64,000 nucleotides of DNA from an uncultured bacterium (GCA_963826535.1 CAWGXL010000011.1:64809-128808); one strand, 5' to 3'. Counted from the first letter of the stretch, positions 11,912 through 49,290 are shown. The notes: generated by a model from the sequence alone, not told the origin. Program-made: numbers and translations.

Positions 11912-14900
11912 TTAATTTACTTTCCCATCCGGCTGCATAGCAGTGCCCCCTCCGCCAAAATTTACAGTCCCATTTACTCCATTAGGTGCTTGATATGGAG
12001 GCTGAATACCAGGCTGGTTATTCATTGGCGGTGGTGGAGGTTGGTTTTGAGGTGTACCATTGGCTGGCTGTGGAACATTATTTTGTACAGGAGAGTAGTT
12101 GCCTTGAACCAGAGGCGGATTTTGCCCAGTACCAGACGGTTCAGGATTTTGCGCCGGTGGATTGTTGGGTTGTGAAGGAGGCTGACCTGACTGTCCGTCG
12201 GTAGGATTTTGCTGTCCCTGGCCAAACGGATAGTTCTGACTTGGGTCTGCGGGATTTGTCTGTGGGTTTACCGGCTGACCTACTTCTCCGGCAGGTGGGT
12301 TTTGCCCGGTACCAGGTGGCACCTGGTTATTTGTTTGCTGCGACGCATCCTGGGGTTGAGCTTGCAATTCAGCGGCGGAAGTATTGTTTGATACGTTGTC
12401 AATTGCATTTAAAATCATGATCGCTGTTTCGTCATTTTGTGTTTTTGCTTGATTGAGCTGCTCGATCAATTGCTGAATTTCTTCACTTGTTACCGCATCT
12501 GTCAAATTAAGCAAAGACGTTGCTAATTTATTACCTTTTTGGCTGGCTTCATCTACTTTGGTATGTAAATTCGTATACAACTCTTTTTCATCAGCATTTT
12601 CCGCGGTGATTGGATTGGCAATAAGAAGTAATGGCACTTTTATTTTCATTATTTCATTTTGCTTGATTGCATCCTGAATTGTGGCCAGTATCTCGGCAGC
12701 CAATGGATCGCCTTGATCTTTGGCCTGTTGTAGTTGGGTTTGTAATTGTTCTATGTCGTCATCAGATGTAATATCTGTAATATTTAAAATTTGTTCCGCG
12801 AGGGGATGATTCTGTTTCCCTGCTTCGCTCAGTTTGTCATAAAGATCTGAGAATTTCCTTTTATTTTCAGGTTCGGCTAAATAAAGCGGGTTGCCGAGTT
12901 GCTTCATGAACTTTTTAAATTTAGTTGTGGGATTGGCTTCTAATGCTTCTTCCGAAGCTTTGCTAATTTCACTATTCATGAGTGCGAGAATGTCGGTTGC
13001 CAGTTCGTTTTCAGTATCTTTCCCTTTGTTCAAATCTTCCATTATTTTTTCAATTGCCGATTGAGGCGAATCGGGTTTTAGTTGAAGAATTGCGGTGGCA
13101 ATCACATTGTTGTTCTGGCTTTCAACTACAACTTTATCATGCAGTTCTTTGAATTTATCGCGGGTAGCTACCGATGCTACTGTTTCCGGATTAACTATTG
13201 ATAAGAGAATTTTCTTTTCCCGCTCGATTGCTTTCAGCTGTTGGGCTATACCCGCTGCCAGGTCGAGTATTTCTTTTGCTAACTCGTCACCTTTCTCTTT
13301 CGCATCATTAAGTTTTTGTCTTATATCGCTAATCTCCTTGTCAGGCGTAGACGCGTTTACGGCAAGAATTGCGGCATAAACCGGATTTGCTCCAGTGCCT
13401 GCTGTGACTGTTTCTTTAGTTGCTTTATCTACTTCTGTGCCTGCTGCGGCAGCTTCTGTTTTTGCTTTATCTGCCTCTGTGGGCGCAGGAGTTACATCTG
13501 CGGTTGCTTTATCTATTCCAGTGCTTGCTGAGTTTGTTGCATTGCTTGCTGCGACAACTTTATCGTGTAATTTCTTGAATATTTCCAGGTCGAATCCAGC
13601 TGTTACATCTTCAGGCTTGGCAATTTTCTGTAAAATTACCTTGAATTCGCTATCGGTTAACAGCGTTACATCGCCTGCTTGTCCACCCTTGTTGAAAATG
13701 AATGCATTGATATTTTCATTATAGTCAATAACGATTGTATCCCCCGGCACGAATTTTTTGGAAATGATGGCGAGTGCGATCGGATTTTCTATGGTTGTTT
13801 GGATAAGACGGCGCAGGGGTCTGGCTCCATAGACAGGATCGTATCCATCTTTGGCTAGTTTAGCAATTGCTTTCTCAGTAATTTGTAAATGGAAGCCTTG
13901 CTCCTTTAATAGCCCGGCAGTCTTGGCGATACCAAGCCGCACTATGCCCGCCATGTGCTCAGGGCGAAGCGGCTTAAATATAACTACCTCATCGAAACGG
14001 TTGAGAAGCTCGGGACGTAAGAACTTAATCAGCTCATCTTTGACGATTTTTTGCAGTTCTGTAAATTGCTTGTTTAATTGTTCAGTTGTTAGTTTGACCT
14101 CTTTACCTTGTTTACTTAGGAATTGCTGGATGATAGCGCTCCCGATATTTGAGGTACATATAACTATAGTATTTTTAAAGGAAATAACATTTCCCTTGTT
14201 GTCTGTTAGTCTACCGTCTTCCAGAAGTTGTAATAGAATATTAAAAACGTCGGGATGAGCTTTTTCAATTTCATCAAACAAAACGATTGAGTATGGCTTC
14301 TTTCTAACCGCTTCTGTCAGTACGCCTCCTTCTTCATATCCAACATAGCCCGGAGGCGCGCCTATAAGCTTGGCAACTTCATGCTTTTCCATAAACTCGG
14401 ACATATCCAGACGAGCCATGGCATCATCGCGCCCGAATAATAATTCGGCTAAGGTTTTGGCAAGTTCAGTTTTTCCTACTCCAGTGGGACCAAGAAAGAC
14501 AAAAGAGGCGGTTGGTCTCTGGCCTGATGCGAGTCCAATTCTTCCACGTCGCACTGCTTCGGAAACCGCTACTACAGCTTCTTCTTGGTCGATAAGTCTC
14601 TGATGAATGCGTTCTTCGAGTTTTAGCAATTTTTCACTCTCGTCTTCAGTCAATTTGGTAATGGGAATTCCTGTCCAAGCGCTGACGACTTTCTCAATAT
14701 CGGCTTTTTTCACATCGCTGTCACCCCGTTTGCCTGTGTCTACCTGCAGTTTAACTTCAGCGCATCCCTCATCAAGCAAATCAATAGATTTATCAGGTAG
14801 AAAACGTTCTCCGATATATTTCTTGGCTAGTTTGATTGATTCTTTGAGCGCGTCATCCGGAATTTTAACACGATGGAATTTTTCATATTTTGTACGCAGC

Positions 14901-16276
14901 ACCTTCATCATTTCGAAGGCATTTTCATCACTTGGTTCTTCAGCGGTTACAGGTTGGAAACGGCGCTCAAATGCTTTATCTTTTTCAAAATGCTTGCGGT
15001 ATTCGGTTGTTGTGGTCGCGCCTATAATTTGCAACTGGCCGCGGGCCAGATATGGCTTTACGATATTGGCCGCGTTCATGCCCTCGCTTTCTCCCGCACC
15101 CATAAGAGAATGAATTTCATCTATAAACAGAATAATTGTTCCATTACTACCTAGGACTTCTGTAATTACCCCTTTGATTCTTTCTTCGAATTCGCCTCTA
15201 TGACTTGCACCAGCGACTAATGATGCAACATCCAGTTGAAAGATTCTTTTATTTAATATATCTTTGGGGACAGCATTAGCAACGATTTTTTGCGCTAACC
15301 CTTCGACTATTGCAGTCTTTCCCACACCTGTCTCGCCAATAATAATCGGATTGTTTTTGGTCCTGCGTAAAAGGATATGGAGGATGCGGTCAATTTCTTT
15401 TTCGCGCCCTGCGACAGGATCAAGTTTGCCTTCGCGGGCTTCAGCCGTTAAGTCAATGGCGTATTTTTCTAAAGTTGATTTCCTACCATAACCGCCGGTA
15501 GTTGATTTTGAAAGTTTATCTACAACTACTTCTTTTTTCAGACCAAGTGTTTGCAAAGTTTGTGCGGTTGAGTAATTAGGACCAAAAAGGACTACCAGAA
15601 TATCTTCCGGTGAAATGAAAGTTGATCCACGCATTTTCGCGTCCCGATAAGCTTGGTCAAAAACCTGCTGGGACACATTACTAAGTACCGGCTGACCTTT
15701 GTATGTTCCGACTCTTTCTTTGGCTTGAATTTCTTTGGAAAGCCTGCCTACATCAACCGCAAGTTCACCCAGTAATTTACTTATTTGTTGATCATATAAC
15801 AATCCAAATAATAACTGGTCAGGTTCAATAGATTGCTGATGGATTCTTCTAGATTCTTCTTGTGCGTGCGTTAATACCAGACTTGCTCTTGGATCCAGAT
15901 GTGAAAGGGCTGACGTATCTACTTTTGCAGAGGTGTTACCAAGGGCCGGATTTGTCTGTCCTTTTGGTAATCCGGCGCCAGGATGTCCTTCCGGAGGAGC
16001 TTGTCCTGCTTGTCCTGGGGGTGGATTCCCTGCACTAACAGGTGCTTGATTTTGTTGAGGACCGGCACCCGGTTGAGGAGGCGGTTGTTGTGCTGAATCT
16101 GGCGGTGGTGGCTGCTGATTATTTTGCTGAGGTTGATTTGACCCCTGTGGCGTATTTGCTTGGGCATCCTGGTTATTATATTGTTGATTTGGATCTTGAG
16201 GCGCCGATTGAACAGGTGGCGCCTGGGCTCCTTGTGCTTCCCCGTCTTTTTTTTGATTGAATAATTTTCCAAACAT
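11912..16276 (-). CDS. ClpA/ClpB-type double-AAA+ unfoldase with Pro/Gln-rich disordered tails and a C-terminal about 90-aa helical-repeat region
   Basis: Clp_N-like domain. D1 has Walker [16 protein letters not shown] and Walker [10 protein letters not shown]2 has [35 protein letters not shown] and GARPLRR sensor-2. The linker between D1 and D2 is too short for a ClpB M-domain. No [IVL]G[FL] ClpP-docking loop is seen after [11 protein letters not shown]. Residues about 900-1290 form repeats homologous to the neighbouring giant protein. N- and C-terminal roughly 125-160 aa are P/Q/N/G-rich. Confidence 0.75.
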
Positions 16277-16306: not shown

Positions 16307-19300
16307 TTACTTCTTTGCAATCTCTTCTTCTTCAGAAAGCGCTTTTGGTTCTTCTTCTTTTTTTATTCCCACTTCAACTTTTTCCTCTTTTTCATCTCCC
16401 AGCTTCAACACTGAAATTACTGTTTTTGCGGCTTTAAGTTTGACGTTGAGATAATCACTTATTTCCTGATAAGAGAATCCTCCCAAAAGCAGGAAAGGTA
16501 GAATGGTTCCCACTTTCTTGAGTCCATCATTTTTCTTATCTGTCTCAGGTGCGAGTAAAAGTGCGAGGGTTTCTTTTATTTCCTCAATCTCTTTCGTAAT
16601 CCATTCTATCCTTCCTTGTTTGTCGTCATTGAAGCCGAAAGGTACAGGAAGAGTCCGATAATTTTCTTCCCACATCTTTTCGATTTCCGTATAATCTTTT
16701 TGCGTAACGGATTGCAGTTTATTACTTTGGGGTACATCAGTTGCATTAATTTGAGAATGTGGCGAAACAGAATGTTTTGCTGCGGTTAAAATACTATCCG
16801 CAGTCTTGTCGCCTTTTTGACTTTTTTCGATAAGCTTCTGGCGTAGATTTTCTATTTTTTGCCGATCAGCCGGTATTTGGACATTTGTTGGGGTGGCGAG
16901 GTTTGCAAGTATTACATGCTCTTTGTGCATTTCTGTGATTTGAGATTTATCCCTAGCCAGAGACATGGCTTCATAACGGACTATATCTTTCATGGTCGGG
17001 AGCTTTAGTTCAACCATAGCCAGGATTTCATTGGAGACCTCGGGTGTGACAATGTTGGTGGCCGCAAATGAGGGGGTTGATATTTCAACTGAAGGCGCTT
17101 CTATATTGACTGCCATGGTTTGGGCTGCTTCCGCGTGTTTGGTTGCAACAGATACTTTGGTTTCTTCGTCAAGGGAAATGGATTTGAGAACATCTTTGGC
17201 TGCATCTTGTTTGGTTTGTAGATAAGAGACGATTTCGGATTGAGAGAAGCCTCCGACTAAAAGGAAGGGCAGAATGTTGGCTACTTCAGAGAGTCCCTGA
17301 TTTACTTTATCCTGATCAGCAGAGTTTAAGAGATTGGTTAAATTACCAATTTTCTCAATATCATCCTTAATCCATTCAGTTCTTGTTCCGGCCATGCCTT
17401 CAGGGACTTCCATATTATTGTAGTTTTCTGTCCACATTTTCTTGACATCTGCTAATTCTTCGGGGGTGACAGTTTGGATGCGGTTGGTTGAGGGAAGAGA
17501 TATTGCCTGTGGCAAAGCCCCTAAAACAGAAGTAGCTACAGATTCACCTTTAAGTTTTTCTTCTTTTAATTTATCACTTAATTTTTGGATATCTGCGCTG
17601 GTTGTTGATTTGTTCACGCTCAAGAGAGAAGTGGCAAGCTCATTGCCGCTTTGACTGGATTTGGCTATGGAATCATGTAATTTGGTCAGGCGCTCACGAT
17701 CAACCGGCGAGGAGATAGAGGCCGGATTGGCGATTTGTTGCAAAACTTGTCTAACTTTGTTGGTCTGTACAGATTTATTAACTGTTGACATAACAGAGGT
17801 AGCTAGAAGATTTGCGCCCTGCTGGCCTTTGTCAAGTTGTTCTCGGATCTTTTGCAGATCTGCATTTGAGGTACTATCGTTTACAGAAAGAATAGTACTG
17901 GCAAGTTCATTCTTCTTATCTTTTTCCTTAACTAGTATCTCATGTAACTTTGTGAATGCAACACGTTCCGATTCAGAAGTGACTGAAGCCGGATTGACGA
18001 TTTGCAGGAGAACGTTTTTGAAGTCTGATGATTGAGTTGCGCTAAAAGCCGCTTTTTGCATAGCAGAACTGGCTGCATTTAAAACTATATCCGCAGTTGC
18101 GTTGCCTTTTTGGCTTTCTTCGAGGAGTTTTTCCCGGAGCTTATCAAATCTAACTCTTTCTGTACTGACAGTAGCTGACGCAGGGTTGGCAATTCTTTCA
18201 AGTGTTTCGCGAACTTTTTGCACCTCTCCAAGTTGCGATTTGTCTCGGGACATTGACATGGTCTCAAAGCGGGCAATATCACGCATTCTGGGTAATTTCA
18301 ATTCAACCATAGCCAGGATTTCATTGGAGACCTCGGGTGTGACAATGTTGGTGGCCGCAAATGAGGGGGTTGATATTTCAACTGAAGGCGCTTCTATATT
18401 GACTGCCATGGTTTGGGCTGCTTCCGCGTGTTTGGTTGCAACAGATACTTTGGTTTCTTCGTCAAGGGAAATGGATTTGAGAACATCTTTGGCTGCATCT
18501 TGTTTGGTTTGTAGATAAGAGACGATTTCGGATTGAGAGAAGCCTCCGACTAAAAGGAAGGGCAGAATGTTGGCTACTTCAGAGAGTCCCTGATTTACTT
18601 TATCCTGATCAGCAGAGTTTAAGAGATTGGTTAAATTACCAATTTTCTCAATATCATCCTTAATCCATTCAGTTCTTGTTCCGGCCATGCCTTCAGGGAC
18701 TTCCATATTATTGTAGTTTTCTGTCCACATTTTCTTGACATCTGCTAATTCTTCGGGGGTGACAGTTTGGATGCGGTTTAAGGAAGGGACACTGATGCTT
18801 GCCTGCTGGGCGGCTGTTGCAAGTACATCTGCGGCAACCGATTCACCTTTAGTCTTGGCTTCATTTAATTTGTCACTTAATTTTTGGATATCTGCGCTAG
18901 TGGTTGATTTATTTACAGATAACAGCGAGGTCGCAAGTTCATTTCCCTTCTGACTTTCTTTTGTCAGGGCTTCATGCAGTTTAGTCATTTTTTCTTTATT
19001 AATAGCTGTAGCTGTGGCGGGGTTGGCGATTTGTTGGAGAACGTCTTTGACTTTGGTCATGTTTTGTGATTTTTGTAAACTGCTACTAATTGTTGTAAGT
19101 ACTTGTGAAGACATAGCAGAGTCTTTTGATTGCTGGAGTTTTTCGCTGATTTTTTCAAGCTCTGTTTGTGTTGTGATATCTTTTACTTGCAAGATTTGGC
19201 CTGCTAATTGGTTGTTATTCTCTTTACTTTCGTGTGCAAGCATGTCGTGGAGTTTGGTCATCTTTTCACGATCAGATGAATTGGTAGCTGAAGCCGGGTT

Positions 19301-21523
19301 GGCGATTTGCTGGAGTACGCTTTTAACTTTGGTCATGTTTTGTGCTTTCTGCAGGCTACCATTGATTGTAGAAAGCAACTGCGAGGACATGGTAGATTCT
19401 TTTGATTGCTGGAGTTTTTCGCTGATTTTTTCAAGTTCTGCTTGTGAAGTAGTATCTTTTACTTGCAATATAGAGGATGCAAGTTGATTATTATTCTCTT
19501 TACTTTCATGTGCAAGCATGTCGTGGAGTTTGGTCATCTTTTCACGATCAGATGAATTGGTAACTGAAGCCGGGTTGGCGATTTGCTGGAGTACGCTTTT
19601 AATTTGGGTAGCTCTGACTGCATTGCTTACCTGAGAGGCTGCTGAGTTGCCAACTGTGCTCTCTTTTACTAATTGATCCCTTATTTTGTCAAGTTCATTT
19701 GCTGTGGTTTTGTCGTTAACAGAGAGAATTGAGCTGGCTAATTGATTACTCTTTTCTTTACTTTCCTTCGAGAGCATGTCATGGAGTTGAGACATTCTCT
19801 CACGATCTACAACATTTGATGTTTGGGCCGGATTGGCAATTTGTTTTAGTATGTTTCTCAAATGTGAATCTGAGGCTTGAACGTTTCTTTGTGATTGATT
19901 ATTGGCGGCTGAATTTATAGCATTTAAGATAGTTGTCGCTACGAGATTTCCCTGTTGAGCCTCTCTGACTATTCTTTCATTCATATTTGCATATCTTTCA
20001 CGTTCTATCGTTGAGGTAACCGCGACCGGGTTACCAATTTTTTCAAGCATTTCACTCATCTTCATTACTTCTTGTCTTTGGCTTGCGTTATTGGATGAAA
20101 GCGCGGTGTCGTATCTGGCGATATCCCGCATTGTAGGAAGCGGGATACTTGCAAAACTTAAAACTTCGGCATTTATTTGAGCATGTGGAACAGAATATGT
20201 TAGAGCGGTACCAGCTCCCTGAGTTTCTCTAATTATTTCTTTGGCTGCGCCGCCAGGCCTCATAGTAGGAGTGAGTGCAATTGGAATATTCACCGACTTT
20301 TTTGTAAATGGTAAAGTCAAGGCAGTGCCTCCAGGCTGAGATCCGGGCGGATATCCTGTAGGTGAAGATGGCGGAACCATCTTATTGCCTAATAAAGTAA
20401 CAAGGTTTTTCATCATTGCGTTATCACCGGAAAAGTTAGCAGCGTAGTCTAAAAAGATTTGCAATAAAATCCAGGGAAGTAGAATAACGATCCATAACAT
20501 TATTAGCGCAACAACATAAAGCATGAAAGTCTCTGTAAGATTAACACTGTTGGTCGGAGTAACGAACTGCCTGGGTCCTCCAAGGAGAATATTTACAGCG
20601 GTGGGATATATAATTTTAGTCGGGTCTTGAATAGCGGGATTGACGAACTGTAAGGGAATTGCCTGTCTCCACATAAATACTAAACCCTGGAGGAAAATCG
20701 CGAAGAGCGGACCATATAATAGCCAGCGGAAGAATTCTCCAATCCAAATCTTGCCAGTATTGCGAACCGGATAAAATAAAAGCAGGAGTGGGAATACCGG
20801 GGATACTATTATAAAGAACCATAAAATTATTTTTCTAATCAATAATATGCCTACCATAACATAGTACGTAAGCGCGGTTAATTTAGTCAGTAATAATGAA
20901 ATAAAGGCTGATTCAGCGTTATAATCACCAAGCAGGCGTAATCCGACAAAGTCCTGGTAGTTCCAACCTACAAAGAGTAAGTCTTGATTGGATATGCAGT
21001 CAGGGGGACAATTAGTGGTGCCTGAACGTAAGAAGAATCCTTGTATTAGATCGGTGAATTGATATAGAAATTGCAGTATTGCGTATGACAAGGCAATTAA
21101 TATCAGTACAGCAGTAAATCTGGGAATAAAACGCATAATAGTGAGACTTCTTCCTCTAGAAATTATAATTATCATGGAGGTTGCTAAAATAACCAATATT
21201 AGAAGAGGCAAAACAATATAGAGGACTATTGTCCACCAAAATTGTGCCAATGGATTAGCCGCGTTGTCGCAATTACGATCGGCTACCTTGGTTACACAAA
21301 CCCATTGGTAATTTAGCAATGTCCAGTTTAGGACGTAACCTGATCGAGCAGCGTTTTTGCCAATAAAGGTTACTTCAGGGTCTACTACCCATAACCCTGC
21401 GGCGGGGGATGCTGTTTGTTGTTGGGCCGGGGCGGGAGCTTGTGCATTGGTAACTGCTACCGGATAAACCAAGGAAACAAAACAATATATTATTGCAAGA
21501 AAAATGGGCAGAAATTTTTTCAT
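16307..21523 (-). CDS. Giant (1738 aa) polytopic membrane protein with an array of about 92-aa helical repeats; N-terminal region VirB6/TrbL-like in topology
   Basis: Signal peptide, then at least 6 TM helices in the first roughly 400 aa. Then about 10 repeats of QIANPAxxTNSSDREKMTKLHDMLAHESKENNNQLASSIL...KISEKLQQSK. A large module (IQTVTPEELADVKKMW...LPFLLVGGFSQSEIVSYL) is present 3 times, two of them identical at nucleotide level. Confidence 0.7.
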   Translation of the reverse strand: MKKFLPIFLAIIYCFVSLVYPVAVTNAQAPAPAQQQTASPAAGLWVVDPEVTFIGKNAARSGYVLNWTLLNYQWVCVTKVADRNCDNAANPLAQFWWTIVLYIVLPLLILVILATSMIIIISRGRSLTIMRFIPRFTAVLILIALSYAILQFLYQFTDLIQGFFLRSGTTNCPPDCISNQDLLFVGWNYQDFVGLRLLGDYNAESAFISLLLTKLTALTYYVMVGILLIRKIILWFFIIVSPVFPLLLLFYPVRNTGKIWIGEFFRWLLYGPLFAIFLQGLVFMWRQAIPLQFVNPAIQDPTKIIYPTAVNILLGGPRQFVTPTNSVNLTETFMLYVVALIMLWIVILLPWILLQIFLDYAANFSGDNAMMKNLVTLLGNKMVPPSSPTGYPPGSQPGGTALTLPFTKKSVNIPIALTPTMRPGGAAKEIIRETQGAGTALTYSVPHAQINAEVLSFASIPLPTMRDIARYDTALSSNNASQRQEVMKMSEMLEKIGNPVAVTSTIERERYANMNERIVREAQQGNLVATTILNAINSAANNQSQRNVQASDSHLRNILKQIANPAQTSNVVDRERMSQLHDMLSKESKEKSNQLASSILSVNDKTTANELDKIRDQLVKESTVGNSAASQVSNAVRATQIKSVLQQIANPASVTNSSDREKMTKLHDMLAHESKENNNQLASSILQVKDTTSQAELEKISEKLQQSKESTMSSQLLSTINGSLQKAQNMTKVKSVLQQIANPASATNSSDREKMTKLHDMLAHESKENNNQLAGQILQVKDITTQTELEKISEKLQQSKDSAMSSQVLTTISSSLQKSQNMTKVKDVLQQIANPATATAINKEKMTKLHEALTKESQKGNELATSLLSVNKSTTSADIQKLSDKLNEAKTKGESVAADVLATAAQQASISVPSLNRIQTVTPEELADVKKMWTENYNNMEVPEGMAGTRTEWIKDDIEKIGNLTNLLNSADQDKVNQGLSEVANILPFLLVGGFSQSEIVSYLQTKQDAAKDVLKSISLDEETKVSVATKHAEAAQTMAVNIEAPSVEISTPSFAATNIVTPEVSNEILAMVELKLPRMRDIARFETMSMSRDKSQLGEVQKVRETLERIANPASATVSTERVRFDKLREKLLEESQKGNATADIVLNAASSAMQKAAFSATQSSDFKNVLLQIVNPASVTSESERVAFTKLHEILVKEKDKKNELASTILSVNDSTSNADLQKIREQLDKGQQGANLLATSVMSTVNKSVQTNKVRQVLQQIANPASISSPVDRERLTKLHDSIAKSSQSGNELATSLLSVNKSTTSADIQKLSDKLKEEKLKGESVATSVLGALPQAISLPSTNRIQTVTPEELADVKKMWTENYNNMEVPEGMAGTRTEWIKDDIEKIGNLTNLLNSADQDKVNQGLSEVANILPFLLVGGFSQSEIVSYLQTKQDAAKDVLKSISLDEETKVSVATKHAEAAQTMAVNIEAPSVEISTPSFAATNIVTPEVSNEILAMVELKLPTMKDIVRYEAMSLARDKSQITEMHKEHVILANLATPTNVQIPADRQKIENLRQKLIEKSQKGDKTADSILTAAKHSVSPHSQINATDVPQSNKLQSVTQKDYTEIEKMWEENYRTLPVPFGFNDDKQGRIEWITKEIEEIKETLALLLAPETDKKNDGLKKVGTILPFLLLGGFSYQEISDYLNVKLKAAKTVISVLKLGDEKEEKVEVGIKKEEEPKALSEEEEIAKK
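17009..17487. repeat. Perfect about 479-bp direct repeat inside the giant gene, copy 1
   Basis: Region 17009-17487 is identical to 18302-18780 (offset 1293 nt). This was checked line by line. Antisense ORFs 16992..17225 and 18102..18518 translate identically. Confidence 0.85.
18302..18780. repeat. Perfect about 479-bp direct repeat inside the giant gene, copy 2
   Basis: See copy 1. Encodes the duplicated module VTPEELADVKKMWTENYNNMEVPEGMAGTRTEW.... Confidence 0.85.
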
Positions 21524-25402: not shown

Positions 25403-26581
25403 ATGGCAGTATTTAAGAGAGACAAGCCACATGTAAATATTGGAACTATCGGTCATGTAGATCACGGAAAAACAACGTTAACTGCTGCAATCACTACCGT
25501 CCTTTCAAAAAAAGGATTTGCTCAGGCTAAAAAATACGAGGATATTGATAATGCCCCTGAGGAAAAGGCGCGTGGAGTCACGATTAACATTTCTCACATG
25601 GAATATGAGACCGAGAAGCGTCACTATGCTCATATTGATGCTCCGGGACACGCTGATTATATTAAGAACATGATCACAGGCGCCGCTCAAATGGATGGCG
25701 CGATACTTGTTGTCTCAGCTCCCGACGGACCTATGCCGCAAACCCGGGAACATATTTTATTAGCTTATCAAGTAGGAGTTCCTTCAATTGTTGTTTTTCT
25801 CAACAAAACCGATATGGTTCAAGACGCGGAACTTCTTGAACTTGTTGAAATGGAAGTGCGCGAACTACTAACCAAGTATCACTTCCCAGGTGACAAAACT
25901 CCAATAATCCGAGGGTCAGCCCTCAAAGCTCTTGAAGGAGATGCAGAAGCCGAAAAACAAATCCTGGAACTTATGAAGACAGTAGACGAATATATCCCAA
26001 CGCCGGTAAGACCATTGGACAAGCCGTTACTTATGCCGGTTGAAGATGTCTTTTCTATAAAGGGACGCGGAACTGTAGTTACCGGAAGAATTGAAAGAGG
26101 GCTTGTCAAAGTCAATGATACTGTAGAGATCGTCGGAATCCGCGATACCAAACCAACAGTAGTAACCGGAGTTGAGATGTTTAAGAAGCAACTTAATGAT
26201 GGACAGGCAGGCGACAATGTAGGTCTTCTACTTCGAGGACTCGAAAAAGATGATGTTGAACGCGGGCAAGTTGTTGCTAAACCCGGATCCATTACACCGC
26301 ACACTGAATTTGAAGCTGAAGCTTATGTGCTTACGAAAGAAGAAGGCGGGCGTCACACACCATTCTTTACCGGTTATCGTCCACAATTTTATATTCGCAC
26401 AACAGATGTGACCGGAAACGTTGCTCTTCCACAAGGTGTTGAGATGGTTATGCCGGGAGACAGTACAAAGATGACAGTGAAGCTAATTGTACCCGTCGCT
26501 TTAGAAGAAGGACAAAGATATGCAATCCGCGAAGGTGGAAGAACAGTTGGAGCAGGAGTTATAACCAAGATAATTAAATAA
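25403..26581 (+). CDS. tuf: Elongation factor Tu
   Basis: [23 protein letters not shown]1 motif, DAPGH and NKTD motifs. 392 aa. Confidence 0.95.
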
Positions 26582-26629
26582 ATAGTACTTTAACAGTCTG
26601 TTTGTCCTGATTAAATCGGGTTTGGATAT

Positions 26630-26938
26630 ATGCCAAAAGGAAGAATTAGAGTTAGATTAAAAAGCTATGATGCACGCGTGCTTGACGTATGTTGTCAGCA
26701 AATTCTAGACTCAGTTATAAGAACAGGCGCGAAAGTAGTAGGACCTGTCCCCCTTCCGACAGACAGAAGTGTTTATGCAGTCAACAAATCGCCTTTTATT
26801 GACAAGGACGCAAGAGATCATTTCGAGATCCGTGTCCATAAACGTTTGGTAGATATTATATCTCCAACAGACAAAACAATTGACAGTTTAACAAATTTGC
26901 AATTACCAGCCGGTGTCGATGTGGAGCTGAAAATGTGA
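26630..26938 (+). CDS. rpsJ: 30S ribosomal protein S10
   Basis: IRVRLKSYDARVLD...GPVPLPT S10 signature. Confidence 0.9.
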   Translation: MPKGRIRVRLKSYDARVLDVCCQQILDSVIRTGAKVVGPVPLPTDRSVYAVNKSPFIDKDARDHFEIRVHKRLVDIISPTDKTIDSLTNLQLPAGVDVELKM

Positions 26939-27018
26939 TGCCCAAACAATCATTAATGCAATTCATGATTTTGATGATGTAGAGCCTAATTAGGGAGTGC
27001 GGAGAGCATATATTTTAC

Positions 27019-27046
27019 GCAAGATAGCCTAAGGCTATCTTTTTTT
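27019..27046 (+). terminator. Intrinsic-terminator-like hairpin plus T8 between rpsJ and rplC
   Basis: Sequence agatagcc-taa-ggctatct is followed by tttttttt, ending 7 nt before the rplC start. It could act as an attenuator. Confidence 0.45.
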
Positions 27047-27052
27047 TGTCTT

Positions 27053-27925
27053 ATGATTCAAACACTATTTGGAGAGAAAATTGAGCAAACACAAATGTTT
27101 TTGGTTGACGGAACACGTATTCCTGTTACGGTAATCGCTGTGCCGGACAATACTATTGTACAAGTAAAGACTCAGGAGAAAGATAAATATACCGCTGTTC
27201 AAATTGGCGTAGGCAAAAAGAAAAAACCAAGTAAGCCTGCGCTCGGACATGCAAAAAAAGCCGGCTTGGATTTTGCGCCTTATGTAATTAAGGAAATAAA
27301 AATTAATCAAGAAGATTCCTCAGCTCAGATCAAAGCGGATTCAGCTGATCCCGATTTAATCGGGACAGATGGGGAAAGTTCATCAAAAGTGGGGGGGTAT
27401 TTAAAAATTGAAGAAGTTTTCAAACCCGGCGATATTGTTGATGTAACAGGAACATCCAAAGGCAAAGGTTTTGCAGGAGTGGTAAAAAGACATGGTTTTA
27501 AAGGCGGGCCTAAAACACACGGGCAGTCAGACCGAGAGCGCGCACCAGGTTCAATCGGCCAAACAACCACACCGGGAAGAGTTTATAGAGGAAAGCGTAT
27601 GGCCGGTCGTATGGGTCACGAAGTAGTGACTGTTAAAAATCTGAAAGTTGTCAGCGTTGACGAAGTCAATAAAAAACTGTATGTTGCCGGGCTTATACCC
27701 GGCGTAAAAAATTCTATCGTCTTTATCACCCGCAAAGGAGAAAGCAAAAAAATCGTTCCATTATATAAAGAGGAACCAAAAGAGGTGCCTAAAGAAAAAG
27801 AAGCCCTTAATCCAGTTCCCGATAGTGCCGAAACAACAGAGCCAAAAGCGGTCGAGGTAAAATCTGAGGAAAAGAAAAAAAACAAAGTAATAAAAGCAGA
27901 TAAGAAGGAGGGAGAGGAAAAATAG
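27053..27925 (+). CDS. rplC: 50S ribosomal protein L3 with internal insertion and K/E-rich C-terminal extension
   Basis: GTSKGKGFAGVVKRHGFKGGPKTHGQS L3 core. Extra segment ADSADPDLIGTDGESSSK and roughly 70-aa lysine/glutamate-rich tail. Confidence 0.9.
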   Translation: MIQTLFGEKIEQTQMFLVDGTRIPVTVIAVPDNTIVQVKTQEKDKYTAVQIGVGKKKKPSKPALGHAKKAGLDFAPYVIKEIKINQEDSSAQIKADSADPDLIGTDGESSSKVGGYLKIEEVFKPGDIVDVTGTSKGKGFAGVVKRHGFKGGPKTHGQSDRERAPGSIGQTTTPGRVYRGKRMAGRMGHEVVTVKNLKVVSVDEVNKKLYVAGLIPGVKNSIVFITRKGESKKIVPLYKEEPKEVPKEKEALNPVPDSAETTEPKAVEVKSEEKKKNKVIKADKKEGEEK

Positions 27926-27985
27926 CTATTAGCTGTCGGCTATCAGCTGTCTGATAGCTATAAGCTGAATGCTTTAAGCTAAATT
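27924..27985 (+). repeat. Structured intergenic repeat in the r-protein cluster, copy 1 (before rplD)
   Basis: Contains agctattagctgtcggctatcag-ctgt-ctgatagc, a hairpin with stem GCTATCAG/CTGATAGC. Confidence 0.5.
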
Positions 27986-28777
27986 ATGGTTAGAATAAAA
28001 AAAACAGAAGAAAAAGTAAAAAAAAGCGTAACTGTGTCAGGCAAAACAAGGGTAACTAAACCTAAAAAGGCAACTATTGTTGCAAAATCAGTAGAAGGGA
28101 TAAAAAAATCAAATAAGCTGATGGCAGAAGTCTTTGATTTGGATGGCAAAATAGTAGAAAAAATTTCGCTTCCGGAGGAAATTTTCGGAGTCAAAATAAA
28201 TAAGGTGTTAATCGCACAGGCAGTAAGAGTTTATCGCGCTAATCAAAGGCAGGGTAACGCCTCAACCAAGACTCGCGGTGAAGTCCAGGGGTCAACACGG
28301 AAAATTTACCGCCAAAAAGGAACCGGCAGGGCTAGGCATGGATCAATACGCGCTCCAATTTTTGTGCATGGCGGAATTGTCGGCGGTCCCAAGCCCCGCG
28401 ATTACAGTTTGCATCTACCACAAAAAATGAAAAGGGCAGCGCTATTCTCTGCTCTGACTGATAAATTCGGCAAAGGAGAAATTAAGTTTCTGCAAGGATT
28501 TGAGAAGATCGAACCGAAAACTAAAAAGTTTATAAATGCTATGGACAAATTAGGTTTAAACGGAAAGAGGAAGAAAATTCTTATTATCACAGGTGCAGAA
28601 ATTGAAAATCTAAAAAGAGGTGCAAGGAACGTTGAAGGAGTAAGCATAACTGCAGCTATTAGATTAAATACATATGATATACTCAGCCATTGGCAAGTAC
28701 TATTTATGAAAGATGCGATAGTGGAATTAAAAAATCGTTTCTTAGATAAAGCGAAAATAGAGAGTAAAAAAATATGA
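27986..28777 (+). CDS. rplD: 50S ribosomal protein L4 with N-terminal K-rich extension
   Basis: [44 protein letters not shown]4 signature. Confidence 0.9.
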
Positions 28778-29109
28778 ACAATCAGCAAGTTATTATTAGT
28801 CCAATTATTACTGAAAAGGCAATGAAGGCAACTGAAGGTGGAAAATATAGCTTCATAGTTGCAATTAAAGCTTCAAAATCAGATATAAAATTAGCTGTAG
28901 CAAGTATGTTTAAAGTAAGCGTTATAAATGTACAAACCAGCATCGTCAAAGGCAGGCAAAAAAGAAATGGCAGCCGGAGGATTGAAACTACTGAGCCGCA
29001 ATGGAAAAAAGCGATTGTTAAACTAAAAAAGGGAGAAAAAATAGGTATCTTTGAACCAGGAGGCGGGGACGAAGAAAAAGAGAAGAAAGACAAGAAAAAG
29101 AAGAAATAA
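28774..29109 (+). CDS. rplW: 50S ribosomal protein L23 with K/E-rich C-terminal tail
   Basis: IISPIITEKAMK...KYSFIV L23 pattern. 4-nt overlap with rplD. Confidence 0.85.
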   Translation: MNNQQVIISPIITEKAMKATEGGKYSFIVAIKASKSDIKLAVASMFKVSVINVQTSIVKGRQKRNGSRRIETTEPQWKKAIVKLKKGEKIGIFEPGGGDEEKEKKDKKKKK

Positions 29110-29137
29110 CGAGTTTTTAAAAAAATGATATAATGCT

Positions 29138-29887
29138 ATGAAACTAAAAATAATTCGAAAAAAACATGGAGGTCGTGATGCGCAAGGTAAAGTAGCAGTA
29201 AGGCATCAAGGAGGAGAGCACAAGCGATTTATCCGCAATATAGATTTTAAGCGTAACAAATTCAATATTGTCGGCAGGATTGAATCGATAGAATATGATC
29301 CAAATCGAACTTGCGACATAGCTCTTGTGCATTATGTTGACGGTGATAAGCGATATATTCTCGCGCCAGAGGGATTAAAGATAAATGATTCTATTCTTGC
29401 CGGGAAAGAAGTTGAGCCGAAAATCGGCAATGCCCTTCCTCTAGCCCAAATGCCTATTGGAACAATTGTTCATAATATTGAACTAACACCGGGAAGAGGC
29501 GGACAAATGGCCCGAAGCGCAGGTACGGCTGCGTCAGTCACGGCCCGGGAGAATGGGTTTGCCCATATCAAACTACCTTCAGGGGAATTACGAAGAATCA
29601 GAGAGGAAGCTCTTGCAACAGTCGGCCAATTAGGCAACGTTGAATGGAAAAACGAAAGTCTTGGTAAAGCCGGACGTTCCAGGAATATGGGTATTCGCCC
29701 GACAGTAAGAGGTGTCGCGCAAAATCCCCGCTCGCATCCGCATGGAGGAGGAGAAGGTCGTAGCGGAATCGGTATGCCCTCTCCTAAAACCTTTGCAGGA
29801 AGAAAAGCAGTAGGCAAAACACGCAAAAGGAATAAGCATTCGAATAAATATATTTTACAAAGAAGAAACAGCAAAAGAGATAAATAA
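29138..29887 (+). CDS. rplB: 50S ribosomal protein L2 (appears to lack the canonical N-terminal about 35 residues)
   Basis: VRHQGGEHKRFIRNIDFKRNK...YDPNRTCDIALV and GRSGIGMPSPKT L2 motifs. An in-frame stop 12 nt upstream precludes a longer N-terminus. Confidence 0.85.
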   Translation: MKLKIIRKKHGGRDAQGKVAVRHQGGEHKRFIRNIDFKRNKFNIVGRIESIEYDPNRTCDIALVHYVDGDKRYILAPEGLKINDSILAGKEVEPKIGNALPLAQMPIGTIVHNIELTPGRGGQMARSAGTAASVTARENGFAHIKLPSGELRRIREEALATVGQLGNVEWKNESLGKAGRSRNMGIRPTVRGVAQNPRSHPHGGGEGRSGIGMPSPKTFAGRKAVGKTRKRNKHSNKYILQRRNSKRDK

Positions 29888-29893
29888 TAAAAT

Positions 29894-30178
29894 ATGTCAA
29901 GAAGCAGTAAAAAAGGACCATACATTGACCCAAGAATATTAAAAAAAGTCCTGAAGCAAAAAGAAACGGGCAATAACGATCCAATTAAAACCTGGTCACG
30001 ACCATGTCAAATTCCACCAGAATTTGTAGGTCATACGTTCCACGTGCATAACGGGAAGAATTTTATTAAAGTCTTTGTACTTGAAAACATGGTAGGTTAT
30101 AGGCTTGGAGAATTTGCGCCTACCCGGATATTCAGAGGTCACGGAAAAGTAGTAGCAAGAGAAATTAGTAAAACTTAA
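29894..30178 (+). CDS. rpsS: 30S ribosomal protein S19
   Basis: [15 protein letters not shown]...[17 protein letters not shown]. Confidence 0.9.
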
Positions 30179-30191
30179 TAAAAAATATTAT

Positions 30192-30644
30192 ATGGAAATC
30201 AGAGCAGTTGCCAAATCAGTCAGAATGAGCCCAAGAAAAATCCGACTAGTCGCGGATATGGTTAGGAATCTCTCAATTGATAATGCCTTACTCGCGTTGC
30301 AGGCAACGCCAAAAAGAGCCGCACTACCGCTTGCAAAAACGCTCAAAAGCGCGGTTGCAAATGCAGTAAACAATGCCGGACTCGATAAAAATGGCCTGAT
30401 AATTGAAAGCATAAATATCACGGAAGGCAGCAGTCTTAAACGCTTCTGGCCATCCACAAGAGGAAGAATTCATCCGTATAAAAAGAGAAGTAGTAACATT
30501 AGAATTGTCTTAAAAGCAAAAGAAATAAAAGCAACGCCAAAAAAGAAAGAGGAGAAAAAAGGTAAAGAAGCTAAAAATCCGCCAGCTGGCCCCGATTTAA
30601 TCGGGACGGGCGGAGAAAAAGTGAGTAAGAAAGGGAAAAAATAA
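30192..30644 (+). CDS. rplV: 50S ribosomal protein L22 with about 45-aa K-rich C-terminal extension
   Basis: AVAKSVRMSPRKIRLVADMVRN L22 start. Extension contains PAGPDLIGTGGEK. Confidence 0.85.
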   Translation: MEIRAVAKSVRMSPRKIRLVADMVRNLSIDNALLALQATPKRAALPLAKTLKSAVANAVNNAGLDKNGLIIESINITEGSSLKRFWPSTRGRIHPYKKRSSNIRIVLKAKEIKATPKKKEEKKGKEAKNPPAGPDLIGTGGEKVSKKGKK

Positions 30645-31294
30645 TGGGGCAGAAAGTTAATCCACATATTATAAGAATAGGAACTGTTTACAACTGGGAC
30701 AGTCGCTGGTTTGATGAAAAGCGATATAAAGAAACTGTGTTAGAAGATTACCAGATTCGGAAAAATTTAATGGAGAGACTAAAGATCGCCGGAATAGCCA
30801 AAACAGAAATTGAGCGGTCAATCAATAGTTTACGAATAATAGTTTATGTTTCACGCCCGGGTATTGTAATTGGGCGAGCCGGTACGGGTCTTGAAGATCT
30901 GAAAAAATTTATTACACAACTATTCCGGAAAATTCGAAATGGCAAAAATCTGCCTAAGCTTGATATCCGGGTAGAGCCGGTTAAGGAGCCAAACCTTGAT
31001 GCATATTTAGTAGCAACTAATGTTGCGGATCAGCTCTTGAGACGTCTTCCTTTCAAAAGAATACTGGCAACCACAGCAGATAAAGTAATGACCGCCCGCG
31101 CAAAAGGGGTAAAAATCGTACTTTCCGGTCGTATAGGAGGATCAGAAATAGGCAGACGCGAAAAAATTCATATTGGTACAGTACCACTTTCAACAATCCG
31201 GGAAGATATCAGTTACGCCCAGGTTCCTGCGTTAACCAAAAAGGGCTATATTGGGGTAAAAGTATGGATAAATAGAGCACAAGAGAAAAAATAG
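30644..31294 (+). CDS. rpsC: 30S ribosomal protein S3
   Basis: MGQKVNPHIIRIGTVYNWDSRWF KH-domain start. Confidence 0.9.
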   Translation: MGQKVNPHIIRIGTVYNWDSRWFDEKRYKETVLEDYQIRKNLMERLKIAGIAKTEIERSINSLRIIVYVSRPGIVIGRAGTGLEDLKKFITQLFRKIRNGKNLPKLDIRVEPVKEPNLDAYLVATNVADQLLRRLPFKRILATTADKVMTARAKGVKIVLSGRIGGSEIGRREKIHIGTVPLSTIREDISYAQVPALTKKGYIGVKVWINRAQEKK

Positions 31295-31360
31295 CTGTCA
31301 GCTATTAGCTATCAGCTTTTAGATGTATGATAGCAGAAAACTGAAAGCGAAAAGCTAACT
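31292..31360 (+). repeat. Structured intergenic repeat in the r-protein cluster, copy 2 (before rplP)
   Basis: Sequence tagctgtcagctattagctatcagcttttagatgtatgatagcagaaa is near-identical to copy 3. Confidence 0.55.
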
Positions 31361-31361
31361 T

Positions 31362-31769
31362 ATGTTAGAGCCAAGAAAACAAAAATATAGAAAGCAGATG
31401 CGAGATAACATGAAGGGGCGGGCAACCCGCGGGTTAAGTTTGGCATTCGGCGAATTTGGTTTATCCACCCAAGATATGGGATGGATCTCAAGTAAACAAA
31501 TTGAGGCTGCTCGCCGTGCTATAGCGCACTATACACAAAGAGGAGGAAGAATCTGGATTAGAATTTTTCCTGATAAGCCAATCAGTAAAAAGCCGCCGGA
31601 GGTAAGAATGGGTGGCGGAAAAGGAGACTTACACGAATTTGTCGCACCGGTCAAACCCGGAAGAATGCTTTTTGAAATGAGCGGAGTGACACTGGAGATT
31701 GCGAAAGAGGCATTAAGATTGGCCTCTCATAAATTACCGGTTAAAACAAAATTTGTAGTAAAAGAATAA
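31362..31769 (+). CDS. rplP: 50S ribosomal protein L16
   Basis: [25 protein letters not shown]16 start. Confidence 0.9.
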
Positions 31770-31821
31770 CATACAACTGGAGTCCTGACTAAGTCGGGAT
31801 GATAAGGAAAATAAAAATAAT

Positions 31822-32031
31822 ATGAAAGCGAAAGATAAAAAAGAATTACACGGAAGAACGGAAAACGAATTATTAAAAATGGTTAAAGACGGGGAAGAGA
31901 TCTTATTGACGTACAGACTCGACAAAGTGCAGAATAAATTGAAAAATACGCGCGATTTGTTTAATACACGCAAAAAAATTGCTATTTTGCGCACAATTTT
32001 AAGAGAAAAGGAGTTGATCAAAAATGTCTAA
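31822..32031 (+). CDS. rpmC: 50S ribosomal protein L29
   Basis: 69-aa helical protein at the conserved position between rplP and rpsQ. Confidence 0.7.
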   Translation: MKAKDKKELHGRTENELLKMVKDGEEILLTYRLDKVQNKLKNTRDLFNTRKKIAILRTILREKELIKNV

Positions 32032-32341
32032 AATATTGCAAGGAAAAGTTATATCTAATAAAATGAAAGGGACTGCGGTTGTCGAAGTATCCCGAATTTT
32101 TCCTCATCCGTTGTATAAAAAACTTCTAAAAAGAAGCAAAAAATATAAAGTTGATACCAAGGGCGAGAAACTGGAAGTTGGCAAAATAGTGAAAATAATC
32201 GAAACCAGGCCAATTGCCAAAGACAAACACTTTGCGATTTATACAAACGCAAAGAAACCTGTTGTGTCAGCAACAAAAGAAAAAACAACTAAGAGTTTGT
32301 TTGAAAAGCCAAAAAAGTTGTTATCTCGACCGAAGCGATAG
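32024..32341 (+). CDS. rpsQ: 30S ribosomal protein S17
   Basis: KVISNKMKGTAVVEV...KYKVD...ETRPI S17 pattern. Confidence 0.85.
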   Translation: MSKILQGKVISNKMKGTAVVEVSRIFPHPLYKKLLKRSKKYKVDTKGEKLEVGKIVKIIETRPIAKDKHFAIYTNAKKPVVSATKEKTTKSLFEKPKKLLSRPKR

Positions 32342-32453
32342 CGTAGTGGAGAGATCTCACCCCACAAAGTTGCTAGGTGGTATGAGATTCACCCAAAGGG
32401 TACTATCCACTTTGTGGTGTCGCCTAGACTCCTGTTGGTCGCTCGGAATGACA
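32342..32453. repeat. MITE-like palindromic element, copy 1 (truncated left end), family with GTCATT...AATGAC termini
   Basis: Region 32342-32453 is a near reverse-complement match to 46229-46341 (shared cgtagtggagRgatctca and ggtcgctcgRaatgaca blocks). It starts at the rpsQ stop codon. Confidence 0.55.
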
Positions 32454-39005: not shown

Positions 39006-39116
39006 TGTCATTCCCCTGGACAGGGGAATCCAGAAGATATAAATAACTCTTCCTTATAAAGGTTAAATAGAAAAACTTATTTTTACCTACTGGATTCCCG
39101 CGTTCGCGGGAATGAC
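39006..39116. repeat. MITE-like palindromic element with termini tgtcattccc / gggaatgac and internal hairpins
   Basis: Terminal inverted repeats at 39006-39015 and 39108-39116. Internal hairpins attcccctg-gac-aggggaat and attcccgcg-ttc-gcgggaat. Intergenic between the kinase gene and map. Confidence 0.55.
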
Positions 39117-40859: not shown

Positions 40860-41273
40860 ATGGCAGAAAAAGAGACAAAGAAAACTACTAAAACCAGGCA
40901 CAAGCCGAAAGCAGTGAAGAACCGTTACACACAGCATGGAAGAATCTATATTACTTCAACTTTTAATAATACCTTAATCACTGTCACAAATGACAAAGGC
41001 GATACACTAGGCTGGAGTTCATCAGGTCATCGTGGTTTTAAAGGCACTCGTAAATCAACACCCTATGCAGCGTCCCTGAGTGTTGAAGATGTTACCAAAA
41101 GACTCATTGAAAAAGGACTTAAGACTGTGGATGTCTATGTCAAAGGCCCGGGTAGTGGTCGGGATTCATCACTTCGGGCAATTAAAACATCAGGATTATC
41201 AATTGTATCTATTGCGGACATTACGCCAATACCACACAATGGACCAAGGGCGAAAAAGAAGAGTAGAGTGTAA
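40860..41273 (+). CDS. rpsK: 30S ribosomal protein S11
   Basis: GRIYITSTFNNTLITVTNDKGDTLGWSSSG S11 motif. Confidence 0.9.
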   Translation: MAEKETKKTTKTRHKPKAVKNRYTQHGRIYITSTFNNTLITVTNDKGDTLGWSSSGHRGFKGTRKSTPYAASLSVEDVTKRLIEKGLKTVDVYVKGPGSGRDSSLRAIKTSGLSIVSIADITPIPHNGPRAKKKSRV

Positions 41274-41278
41274 AAATG

Positions 41279-41346
41279 TAGCTGTCAGCTATTGGCTATC
41301 AGCTTTTAGATGTCTGATAGCAGAAAGCTTACAACAGAGAGCTAAA
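41279..41346 (+). repeat. Structured intergenic repeat in the r-protein cluster, copy 3 (before rpsD)
   Basis: Sequence tagctgtcagctattggctatcagcttttagatgtctgatagcagaaa has the same palindrome tagctg-t-cagcta and hairpin gctatcag...ctgatagc. Confidence 0.55.
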
Positions 41347-41348
41347 TT

Positions 41349-41951
41349 ATGGCAAGATATAGAGGACCAAAACATAAACTAGCAAGGCGCGCCGGAGTAA
41401 ATTTGTTAGAAAAGACATCGGCAAGCTTGATGCGCAGGCTCAATACGCCACCGGGTCTGCATGGCAAAAAAAGGAAAAGGAGACTTTCCGAATTCGGACA
41501 ACAATTAAAGGAAAAACAGAAAGCAAAGTCCGTGTATGGATTGCTAGAAAAGCAATTTAAGAAATTGCTCCAACACGTATCCAAACAAAAAGGAGATACA
41601 GAGGAACTACTCTTATCGCTTCTTGAACGAAGACTTGATAATATTGTGTATAGACTTGGTTTTGCCAAATCCAGATTTATGGCCCGCCAGTTAGTAACTC
41701 ATGGGCACATCATACTAAATAACAAAAAAATGACGATCCCCTCTTATGAATTGAAAGCAGGTGATGTAGTGTCGCTAGGTGCCAAAATGCAAAAAAATGC
41801 GCTGGTTATTAAAACAATAGATGAAATGAAAGATACGATCGCGTTTCTTGAAAGACAAGGGGGAGCGGGTAAATTAGTCAGGATGCCAACACCTGACGAT
41901 ATTAAGCCTCCTTTTAATACAAGACAAATTATTGAATATTATTCCAGATAA
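41349..41951 (+). CDS. rpsD: 30S ribosomal protein S4
   Basis: MARYRGPKHKLARR start and S4-domain RLDNIVYRLGFAKSR. Confidence 0.9.
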   Translation: MARYRGPKHKLARRAGVNLLEKTSASLMRRLNTPPGLHGKKRKRRLSEFGQQLKEKQKAKSVYGLLEKQFKKLLQHVSKQKGDTEELLLSLLERRLDNIVYRLGFAKSRFMARQLVTHGHIILNNKKMTIPSYELKAGDVVSLGAKMQKNALVIKTIDEMKDTIAFLERQGGAGKLVRMPTPDDIKPPFNTRQIIEYYSR

Positions 41952-46205: not shown

Positions 46206-46228
46206 AAAGGCCCTATTATGCATCAATT

Positions 46229-47256: not shown

Positions 47257-47288
47257 TGATCGATATTATAGCAGTAATTTATTGTTGA

Positions 47289-49258: not shown

Positions 49259-49290
49259 AGATCGATATTATAGCAGTAATTTATTGATGA

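Follow-up and report, generated by a model that had tools for sequence, protein, structure and literature searches.

A short GC-rich hairpin repeat in the ribosomal protein genes rplC and rplV of a Candidatus Levybacteria genome

A GC-rich hairpin, CCCGATTTAATCGGG, composed of a 6-bp stem and a TTA loop, was found to recur within a 64,000-nt stretch of DNA (referred to here as the window) from an 894-kb genome of Candidatus Levybacteria (Microgenomates, CPR/Patescibacteria), and probably (with an estimated probability of about 0.6) represents the conserved core common to a family of short palindromic repeats, GC-rich and specific to this lineage, that are selfish or neutral in an otherwise AT-rich genome (GC content of the window, 38%). 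Comparison with relatives showed that hairpin DNA has been gained in a lineage-specific manner, namely as 51 nt in rplC, as about 21 nt upstream of rpsJ and in the rplP/rpmC spacer. Both coding copies keep the reading frame and contain no stop codon, and are located in a variable loop of uL3 and in the C-terminal tail of uL22.

Members of the CPR/Patescibacteria are viewed as extremely streamlined, with reduced ribosomes, yet in the present genome selfish-looking palindromes still enter essential ribosomal protein genes. Such entry would offer a concrete mechanism for lineage-specific extensions of ribosomal proteins in Levybacteria (the uL3 loop and the uL22 tail), as well as a bacterial phenomenon comparable with Rickettsia palindromic elements (RPEs) and with the yeast mitochondrial GC clusters in VAR1. 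The inserts also affect ribosomal-protein phylogenies, strain typing and gene calling, the last through spurious small ORFs across GTCATT repeats.

Copies of the hairpin in the window

Table 1. Positions of the hairpin copies and of the larger elements that contain them, counted from the first nucleotide of the window
Feature	Position	Strand	Context and description
Reverse-oriented variant CCTGATTAAATCGGG	26606-26620	+	tuf/rpsJ spacer; CCTGAT-TAA-ATCGGG
In-frame insertion in rplC, 51 nt (17 codons)	27320-27370	+	S90-D106, SAQIKADSADPDLIGTD; double hairpin, TCAGCT..AGCTGA plus core
Core hairpin CCCGATTTAATCGGG, exact	27350-27364	+	inside the rplC insertion; CCCGAT-TTA-ATCGGG, read as PDLIG
Two-tier palindrome	30578-30614	+	rplV C-terminal tail; outer stem TCCGCC/GGCGGA around the core
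Core hairpin CCCGATTTAATCGGG, exact	30591-30605	+	rplV (uL22) tail
Reverse-oriented variant CCTGACTAAGTCGGG	31784-31798 (hairpin 31783-31799)	+	rplP/rpmC spacer; TCCTGAC-TAA-GTCGGGA
Nested palindromic element, 105 nt	50290-50394	+	upstream of metG; 12-bp perfect terminal inverted repeat TGTCATTGCGAG/CTCGCAATGACA, three hairpins inside
Core hairpin CCCGATTTAATCGGG, exact	50364-50378	+	nested element upstream of metG

Five copies of the family were identified in the window (Table 1), of which two are in-frame within coding sequence (uL3 and uL22) and three are non-coding. The exact 6-bp stem and TTA loop element that the initial annotation had placed at 27350 and 30591 was reproduced, and the reading frames agreed with the peptides assigned to these sites (L3, DPDLIGTDGE; L22 tail, GPDLIGTGGE). 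Two further copies given in that annotation exist but were misplaced, as the exact match on the metG side starts at 50364 rather than 50354 (10 nt off) and the variant upstream of rpsJ starts at 26606 rather than 26605. The fifth copy, in the rplP/rpmC spacer, was found by means of local BLAST and a degenerate pattern scan. With up to two mismatches to CCCGATTTAATCGGG allowed, the window contains eight strand-matches at four sites against an expectation of 0.12, a count that was not reached in any of 100 dinucleotide shuffles. In a ranking of the window's 12-mers by number of repeats, CCCGATTTAATC shared second place, and four of the six reading frames of the core are free of stop codons.

The copies in rplC and rplV have a unit of 36 nt in common, CAGCTG-RY-CCCGATTTAATCGGGAC-R-G-RY-GG-R-GAAA, past which their similarity ends abruptly. 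Of the 19 positions that flank the 17-nt core, 13 are identical (P=1.6e-4) and the other six differ by transitions, compared with no differences across the 17 positions of the core itself (Fisher p=0.02). The 36-nt homology, the transition-only changes in the flanks and the unchanged core suggest that these are diverged members of a single family and that neither was recently copied from the other, with the core being kept constant by selection or gene conversion. The metG copy has only a 17-mer (TCCCGATTTAATCGGGA) in common with the rplC copy, and a 16-mer (CCCGATTTAATCGGGA) with the rplV copy.

Several other identities of the hairpin were considered and rejected. None of the five hairpins fits the stem-plus-T-run pattern of an intrinsic terminator, and five copies in 64 kb are far too sparse for a DNA uptake sequence, given the densities at which such sequences generally occur. 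A tRNA anticodon-arm mimic or tRNA-derived sequence was suggested by the anticodon-like loop ATTTAAT, yet ARAGORN called no tRNA in the window, and the tRNA-like contexts seen in metagenomes were either not called as tRNAs or contained the hairpin outside the anticodon arm.

In-frame copies in rplC and rplV

The deduced L3 protein of the window comprises 290 aa and reads ...ADSADPDLIGTDGE... across the insert region; its exact sequence, like that of L22, is recorded from one contig of 894,453 bp. In the closest relative, P0002 (Logan contig L081; 93% DNA identity over 1 kb), rplC lacks exactly 51 nt between codons TC(G/C) and GG(A/G), with both flanks being collinear. Among Levybacteria L3 alignments, for which relatives were taken from GTDB species genomes, the PDLIGT block was present in the window only and was missing from more than 60 other L3 sequences. 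The lack of these 51 nt in a sister with 93% identity and in all other relatives examined argues for a recent event, and the L3 segment is, as judged from these alignments, a derived in-frame insertion. The proposal that this segment is absent from canonical L3 was thereby upheld for L081 and every other Levybacteria L3 examined; orthologue alignment against L081 defined the boundaries of the insert as 51 nt (S90-D106), and the relatives without the element also lack the 17-codon segment, so that no ancestral form of the peptide was encountered. An insertion into rplC had likewise been predicted correctly, although the inserted unit proved to be a 51-nt double hairpin and not the 15-mer alone. 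The empty site in the sister lineage makes the insertion datable and its mechanism testable. An assembly or chimera artefact is extremely improbable: the source genome is metagenome-derived, but nothing specific points to such an error, the insertions are in-frame with perfectly collinear flanking sequence, the contig measures 894 kb, and related hairpins are present in independent assemblies (L081, L005 and L148).

The RNA of the rplC insert was predicted to form two adjacent hairpins (-23.1 kcal/mol, z=-3.2). In an AlphaFold2 model of L3, pLDDT values of 54-59 were obtained across the insert and over residues 91-110, compared with values above 90 for the flanks, with a short helix predicted at residues 86-96 and no confident fold for the insert, and HMMER alignments with solved uL3 structures were interrupted over residues 73-107. 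The low pLDDT of the insert and the breaks in the alignments fit a variable loop of the uL3 globular domain, which, based on general knowledge of uL3, we take to be solvent-exposed. The candidate tryptic peptide covering the insert is ADSADPDLIGTDGESSSK.

When compared with the empty site of L081, the rplC junctions showed no directly repeated target sequence. This empty site, GATTCGGGAGAAAG, resembles the right arm AATCGGGA together with the GGRGAAA located 3' of the core in both coding copies, i.e. the pre-insertion site carried ATTCGGGA..GAGAAA, similar to the right arm and flank of the element. Such a half-site, at the position where the window has the complete right arm, as well as the lack of a target-site duplication, would be expected if the hairpins had been made in place through a replication template-switch that copies the complement of a nearby half-site, with no donor element; upstream of rpsJ, L001 similarly has GTCGG at the position of the L081 right arm GTCGGG. 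An in-place origin is nevertheless considered very unlikely, since independent events cannot explain the identical 16-mer (loop included) in three copies, the identical 17-mer in the two coding copies, or the 36 nt that the latter have in common and in which they differ by transitions only; in addition, the rplC insert amounts to 51 nt and includes a second hairpin.

The deduced L22 protein of the window comprises 150 aa, with a tail reading ...PPAGPDLIGTGGEK..., in which the two-tier palindrome is translated as NPPAGPDLIGTGGE; the palindrome ends 30 nt 5' of the rpsC start, and the candidate tryptic peptide for the tail is NPPAGPDLIGTGGEK. As read from the sequence, deletion of 18 nt around the core gives a perfect palindrome, TCCGCCAGCTGGCGGA. 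The C-terminal tails of uL22 were shown to be hypervariable across the clade, and the tail of the window is not common to relatives: that of the nearest available uL22 relative, P0122/L147, is unalignable and contains no hairpin. The L22 copy was found to be in-frame within a lineage-specific tail, as annotated, but alignment of such hypervariable tails with orthologues yielded no insert boundaries. The spacer between rplV and rpsC spans about 80 nt in L147, compared with none left in the window, and as an alternative to insertion, the rplV extension perhaps captured a hairpin from the former spacer.

In both genes the element is read in the same frame, placing a near-identical 12-residue peptide, (S/P)A(D/G)PDLIGT(D/G)GE, on two large-subunit surface proteins. 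It is conceivable that this peptide is a selected protein motif, for example for docking at the ribosome surface, with the DNA hairpin being incidental. This explanation is highly improbable, as the third-codon positions of the core are all identical and codons in the flanks have changed amino acids (D/G twice), the same DNA is present at three non-coding places, the sister lineage lacks the peptide, and the AlphaFold2 model assigned no confident fold to the insert. A motif of six residues such as PDLIGT is expected by chance tens of thousands of times in the protein database.

Alignments of uL3 and uL22 homologues showed that several Levybacteria carry different, unrelated palindromes at this uL3 loop and in the uL22 tail, likewise in-frame. 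The uL3 protein of P0009/L270 contains a 7-codon insert, LPAGRQV, at the same loop, of which LPAGRQ is encoded by a perfect palindrome, GCCTGCCGGCAGGC. In the uL22 tail of P0220/L148, CCCGATtcaATCGGG (CCCGAT-TCA-ATCGGG) encodes INPDSIGIKSG and is absent from the sister P0221, that of L001/P0163 contains GACCCCGTCTAGCGGGGTC together with a GTCATCCTGAG element, and uL22 of P0159/L271 contains GTCATTCCTGCGAAAGCCGGAATC (VIPAKAGI). Signature peptides of such palindromes were observed in at least a dozen of 120 uL22 homologues.

Other extensions were also noted in these proteins. The C-terminal tails of L3 are long in L002, L003, L005, L007, L010 and L013, with common motifs such as S(G/D)DA(R/Q)Q...ASLSE(S/I)Q, suggestive of either a repeat-derived or a shared extension. 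A uL22 subclade (P0172, P0177, P0179, P0181, P0193, P0205, P0224, P0227 and P0230) possesses a conserved, non-palindromic C-terminal extension with the sequence ...ADAAVEAAL(Y/H)GG..EKK.GV(K/R)ALASRLTGKK.

Non-coding copies and distribution in relatives and metagenomes

The hairpin upstream of rpsJ is located 25 nt past the tuf stop codon and 10 nt ahead of the rpsJ ATG, inside an inserted block of roughly 21 nt (about 26601-26622) present in the window and L081 only; L001 and L004 read AACAGTCTG followed directly by T(C/T)GGAT, without this block. Based on this comparison, the hairpin is a lineage-specific insertion, and no target-site duplication was found at its junctions relative to the empty sites. 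Its L081 equivalent, CCCGAC-TGA-GTCGGG, differs from the window by four transitions, with stem pairing being kept. The hairpin of the rplP/rpmC spacer, 15 nt past the rplP stop codon and 22 nt ahead of the rpmC ATG, was found in no relative examined, and its predicted RNA fold reached -11.4 kcal/mol (z=-3.5). The 105-nt element upstream of metG (DNA fold -39.9 kcal/mol, z=-7.2) can be read as two 'GTCATTGCGAG-[hairpin]-GCAATC' modules in inverted orientation, of which the right module contains the core as its inner hairpin; this copy, annotated as part of a MITE-like element, is located inside a nested palindromic element.

The arrangement of the copies raises the question of a function in RNA. 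The S10 operon accounts for four of the five, all within 5.2 kb (p about 0.02), which counts against a selfish repeat, and four of the five precede a start codon by no more than 90 nt (rpsJ, rpsC, rpmC and metG). Both imperfect copies (rpsJ and rplP/rpmC) and the L005 copy have U.G, not C.A, on the sense strand, and these wobbles, the invariant 17-nt core between diverged flanks and the compensatory T-A/C-G change relative to L081 are equally expected of a functional RNA hairpin. The main rival to the repeat family, compatible with it since the two are non-exclusive, is accordingly a cis-acting mRNA stem-loop of the ribosomal-protein operon, serving stability, processing or regulator binding and tolerated or recruited in coding sequence. 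As a sole explanation it is considered unlikely, because the same positions are empty in all but the closest relative, which argues against conserved regulatory sites, and because nested repeats of unrelated contigs include the hairpin as a module as well. No Rfam 15 family was detected at any copy, either in a gathering-threshold scan of the window or in E-value scans of 26400-32100 and 50200-50480. The stems are weak, with the rpsJ copy (-7.1 kcal/mol) folding no better than shuffled sequences; tolerance alone predicts an intergenic bias, the wobbles could stem from a C-to-T bias on the non-template strand, and constraint on stems is also known in the selfish yeast GC clusters (PMC4478555).

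In 368 kb of S10/spc loci from other Levybacteria, the degenerate pattern was found at five sites (L005, L019 twice, L081 and L148), compared with five in the 64-kb window. JGI metagenomes contained the 16-mer at least 120 times, always as a single copy. Among the 81 occurrences examined, 15 were located within 30 nt of GTCATT or AATGAC, compared with a background of 0.8% (P=8e-10 and 4e-4), and three of these 15 (L188, L212 and L225) exhibited the architecture GTCATTGCGAGGAG[CT]-hairpin-C[GT]ACG, as in the element upstream of metG in the window. This enrichment and this architecture indicate that the hairpin is an interchangeable inner module of widespread nested palindromes of the GTCATT…AATGAC type. 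Perfect outer stems measuring 5 bp or more accompanied 15% of the metagenome matches versus 6% of controls, nesting being common but not the rule, and the remaining occurrences resembled terminators, rRNA helix tips or chance matches. Two further results count against the reading as a selfish repeat: the JGI metagenomes gave no matches to a 27-nt rplC/rplV consensus, and the count of five copies covers the 64-kb window of an 894-kb genome.

A phage origin was rejected, as IMG/VR contained 65 matches to the 15-mer, with one copy per contig and no recurring pattern among the matches listed; a rough chance estimate is of similar order. Candidate in-frame copies among the metagenome matches were also rejected, the spanning ORFs being spurious-looking or ordinary coding sequence. 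In some of these contigs the 16-mer hairpin coincides with structural RNA: it forms the tip of 16S rRNA helix 44 in L207 (about 395-410) and L157 (about 11620-11635), lies within other 16S/23S regions in L199, L155, L194 and L187, and would take the place of the anticodon arm (anticodon UUA) in tRNA-like sequences with D-arm and T-arm motifs in L203 and L219, where ARAGORN calls no tRNA.

Additional palindromic sequences were observed in the window. Hairpin modules of the form GTCATTCCC..GGGAATCC, paired in inverted orientation and differing in their inner sequences (39007-39032 and 39092-39116), occupy the spacer ahead of a methionine aminopeptidase-like gene and belong to the same nested-palindrome class as the element upstream of metG. 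GTCATT-type palindromic fragments are located at 46228-46262 (GTCATTTCGAGCGACCAAAGGGAGTCGAGAAATC) and at 32419-32453 (...GGTCGCTCGGAATGAC), the latter adjoining the S17/L14 boundary. The 114-nt rpsJ/rplC spacer contains a terminator-like hairpin, AAGATAGCC-TAA-GGCTATCTT, followed by T8 (27021-27041), which is kept in L081 with one base change in the 3' arm and may act as an attenuator inside the S10 operon. Furthermore, a 79-nt intergenic repeat, in which AGCTNNCAGCT words are abundant, is present in three copies with 66-85% identity (27910-27988, 31286-31364 and 41273-41351), every copy stopping exactly at the ATG of the next gene, i.e. rplD, rplP and an ORF at 41349, possibly rpsD. The first copy contains the hairpin GCTATCAG-ctgt-CTGATAGC, and the repeat could represent a shared leader or another repeat family. 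A relationship between this repeat and the left half of the rplC insert was rejected, the local alignment score being no better than the genome background.

Comparison with known systems and mode of spread

RPEs are inserted in-frame in ORFs (Ogata et al. 2000, summarised in PMC10969869) and comprise ten defined families in Rickettsia, with a size of about 100-150 bp (PMC10969869). The family described here shares with them a palindromic, hairpin-forming sequence and in-frame insertion into ORFs without disruption (rplC and rplV), the occurrence of palindromes both in intergenic regions and in essential genes of a reduced, AT-rich genome, translation as extra segments, and apparent retention only where the protein fold tolerates them. 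It differs in size, with a core of 15-17 nt, a shared unit of 36 nt and a largest insert of 51 nt, and in its host, which belongs to the Patescibacteria and not the Rickettsiales. The parallel with RPEs drawn in the initial annotation accordingly holds for the behaviour of in-frame hairpins, but does not extend to membership, given the size and host.

Yeast mitochondrial GC clusters are inserted in the ribosomal protein gene VAR1 and in rRNA genes (PMC4464245), and their stems are constrained and vary less than the surrounding sequence, with units merging and shuffling into composite palindromes (PMC4478555). These clusters (e.g. GC42) match the behaviour observed here even more closely than RPEs do: as GC-rich hairpins of an AT-rich genome, they lie largely in non-coding DNA, yet are also found in-frame within a ribosomal protein gene. 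They are, however, organellar and unrelated in sequence, and have a putative AG target-site duplication that is lacking here. The 51-nt double hairpin of rplC also resembles fungal double-hairpin elements. In terms of behaviour, the element thus resembles both RPEs and yeast mitochondrial GC clusters, and is a member of neither.

Other classes of short repeats were also compared. REP/REPIN sequences, which are mobilised by RAYT (Y1 HUH) transposases, are likewise short imperfect palindromes, often terminator-like or intergenic, and the inverted doublets that form a larger hairpin have counterparts in the window (50290-50394 and 39007-39032/39092-39116). The GTAG head is nevertheless absent beside all five copies, which places the family outside this class; moreover, two of the five copies are intragenic, and no RAYT gene was seen in the 64-kb window. 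MITEs can give rise to in-frame fusions (PMC10969869), and the element upstream of metG is similarly small and non-coding with terminal inverted repeats; the rplC, rplV and intergenic copies possess only their own hairpin arms. In contrast to MITEs, the coding copies lack GTCATT terminal repeats, no target-site duplication was found at the datable insertions (rplC and upstream of rpsJ), and no parent IS was identified. In line with the initial annotation, which knew of no description in this lineage, the searchable literature yielded no report of such elements in Levybacteria or in CPR/Patescibacteria at large, and a survey of CPR ribosomes is silent on them.

The lack of a target-site duplication at the rplC and rpsJ junctions counts against a selfish repeat, as does the lack of a transposase among the 20 large non-ribosomal ORFs of the window scanned against Pfam. 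Together with the pre-existing half-site in rplC, these observations point to homology-anchored copying from another member, through gene conversion or a template switch, rather than cut-and-paste transposition as the way in which members of the proposed repeat family would have spread. Hairpins would tend to land in or beside existing palindromes, giving rise to nested elements. Purifying selection would purge those coding insertions that are not a multiple of three, carry stop codons or fall in a structured part of the protein, and the surviving coding copies would be translated into short, flexible stretches of peptide (PDLIGT) that themselves serve no function, whereas intergenic copies may secondarily serve as mRNA stem-loops.

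A bolder version of this scheme, which we regard as rather doubtful, is that of an ultra-short (about 17-36 nt) mobile hairpin module that spreads free of any transposase via micro-homology or palindrome apices and builds the GTCATT…AATGAC repeats, with its invariant core being recognised at the DNA or RNA level by a factor of the host or the element. If true, such a module would constitute a recurrent source of new ribosomal protein loops and tails in Levybacteria.

Further features of the window were recorded alongside the repeat. Four tandem paralogues of about 300 aa are encoded at 46351-50199 (-), with two more located 35-40 kb off at 5144-5980 and 10975-11883 (+); these exhibit 71-76% DNA identity, and both of the two tested had no Pfam match. 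In a 1738-aa ORF at 16307-21523 (-), also without a Pfam match, tandem repeats of 276 nt (19008-19559) occur alongside an internally duplicated stretch of 1.3 kb. A ClpB-like AAA+ protein (11912-16276, -) is unusually long at 1454 aa, extending about 600 residues past the ClpB_D2-small domain. A DUF3800-IX RNA at 57783-57854 (-) represents the only Rfam match of the window at gathering level (39.2 bits, E=8e-5).
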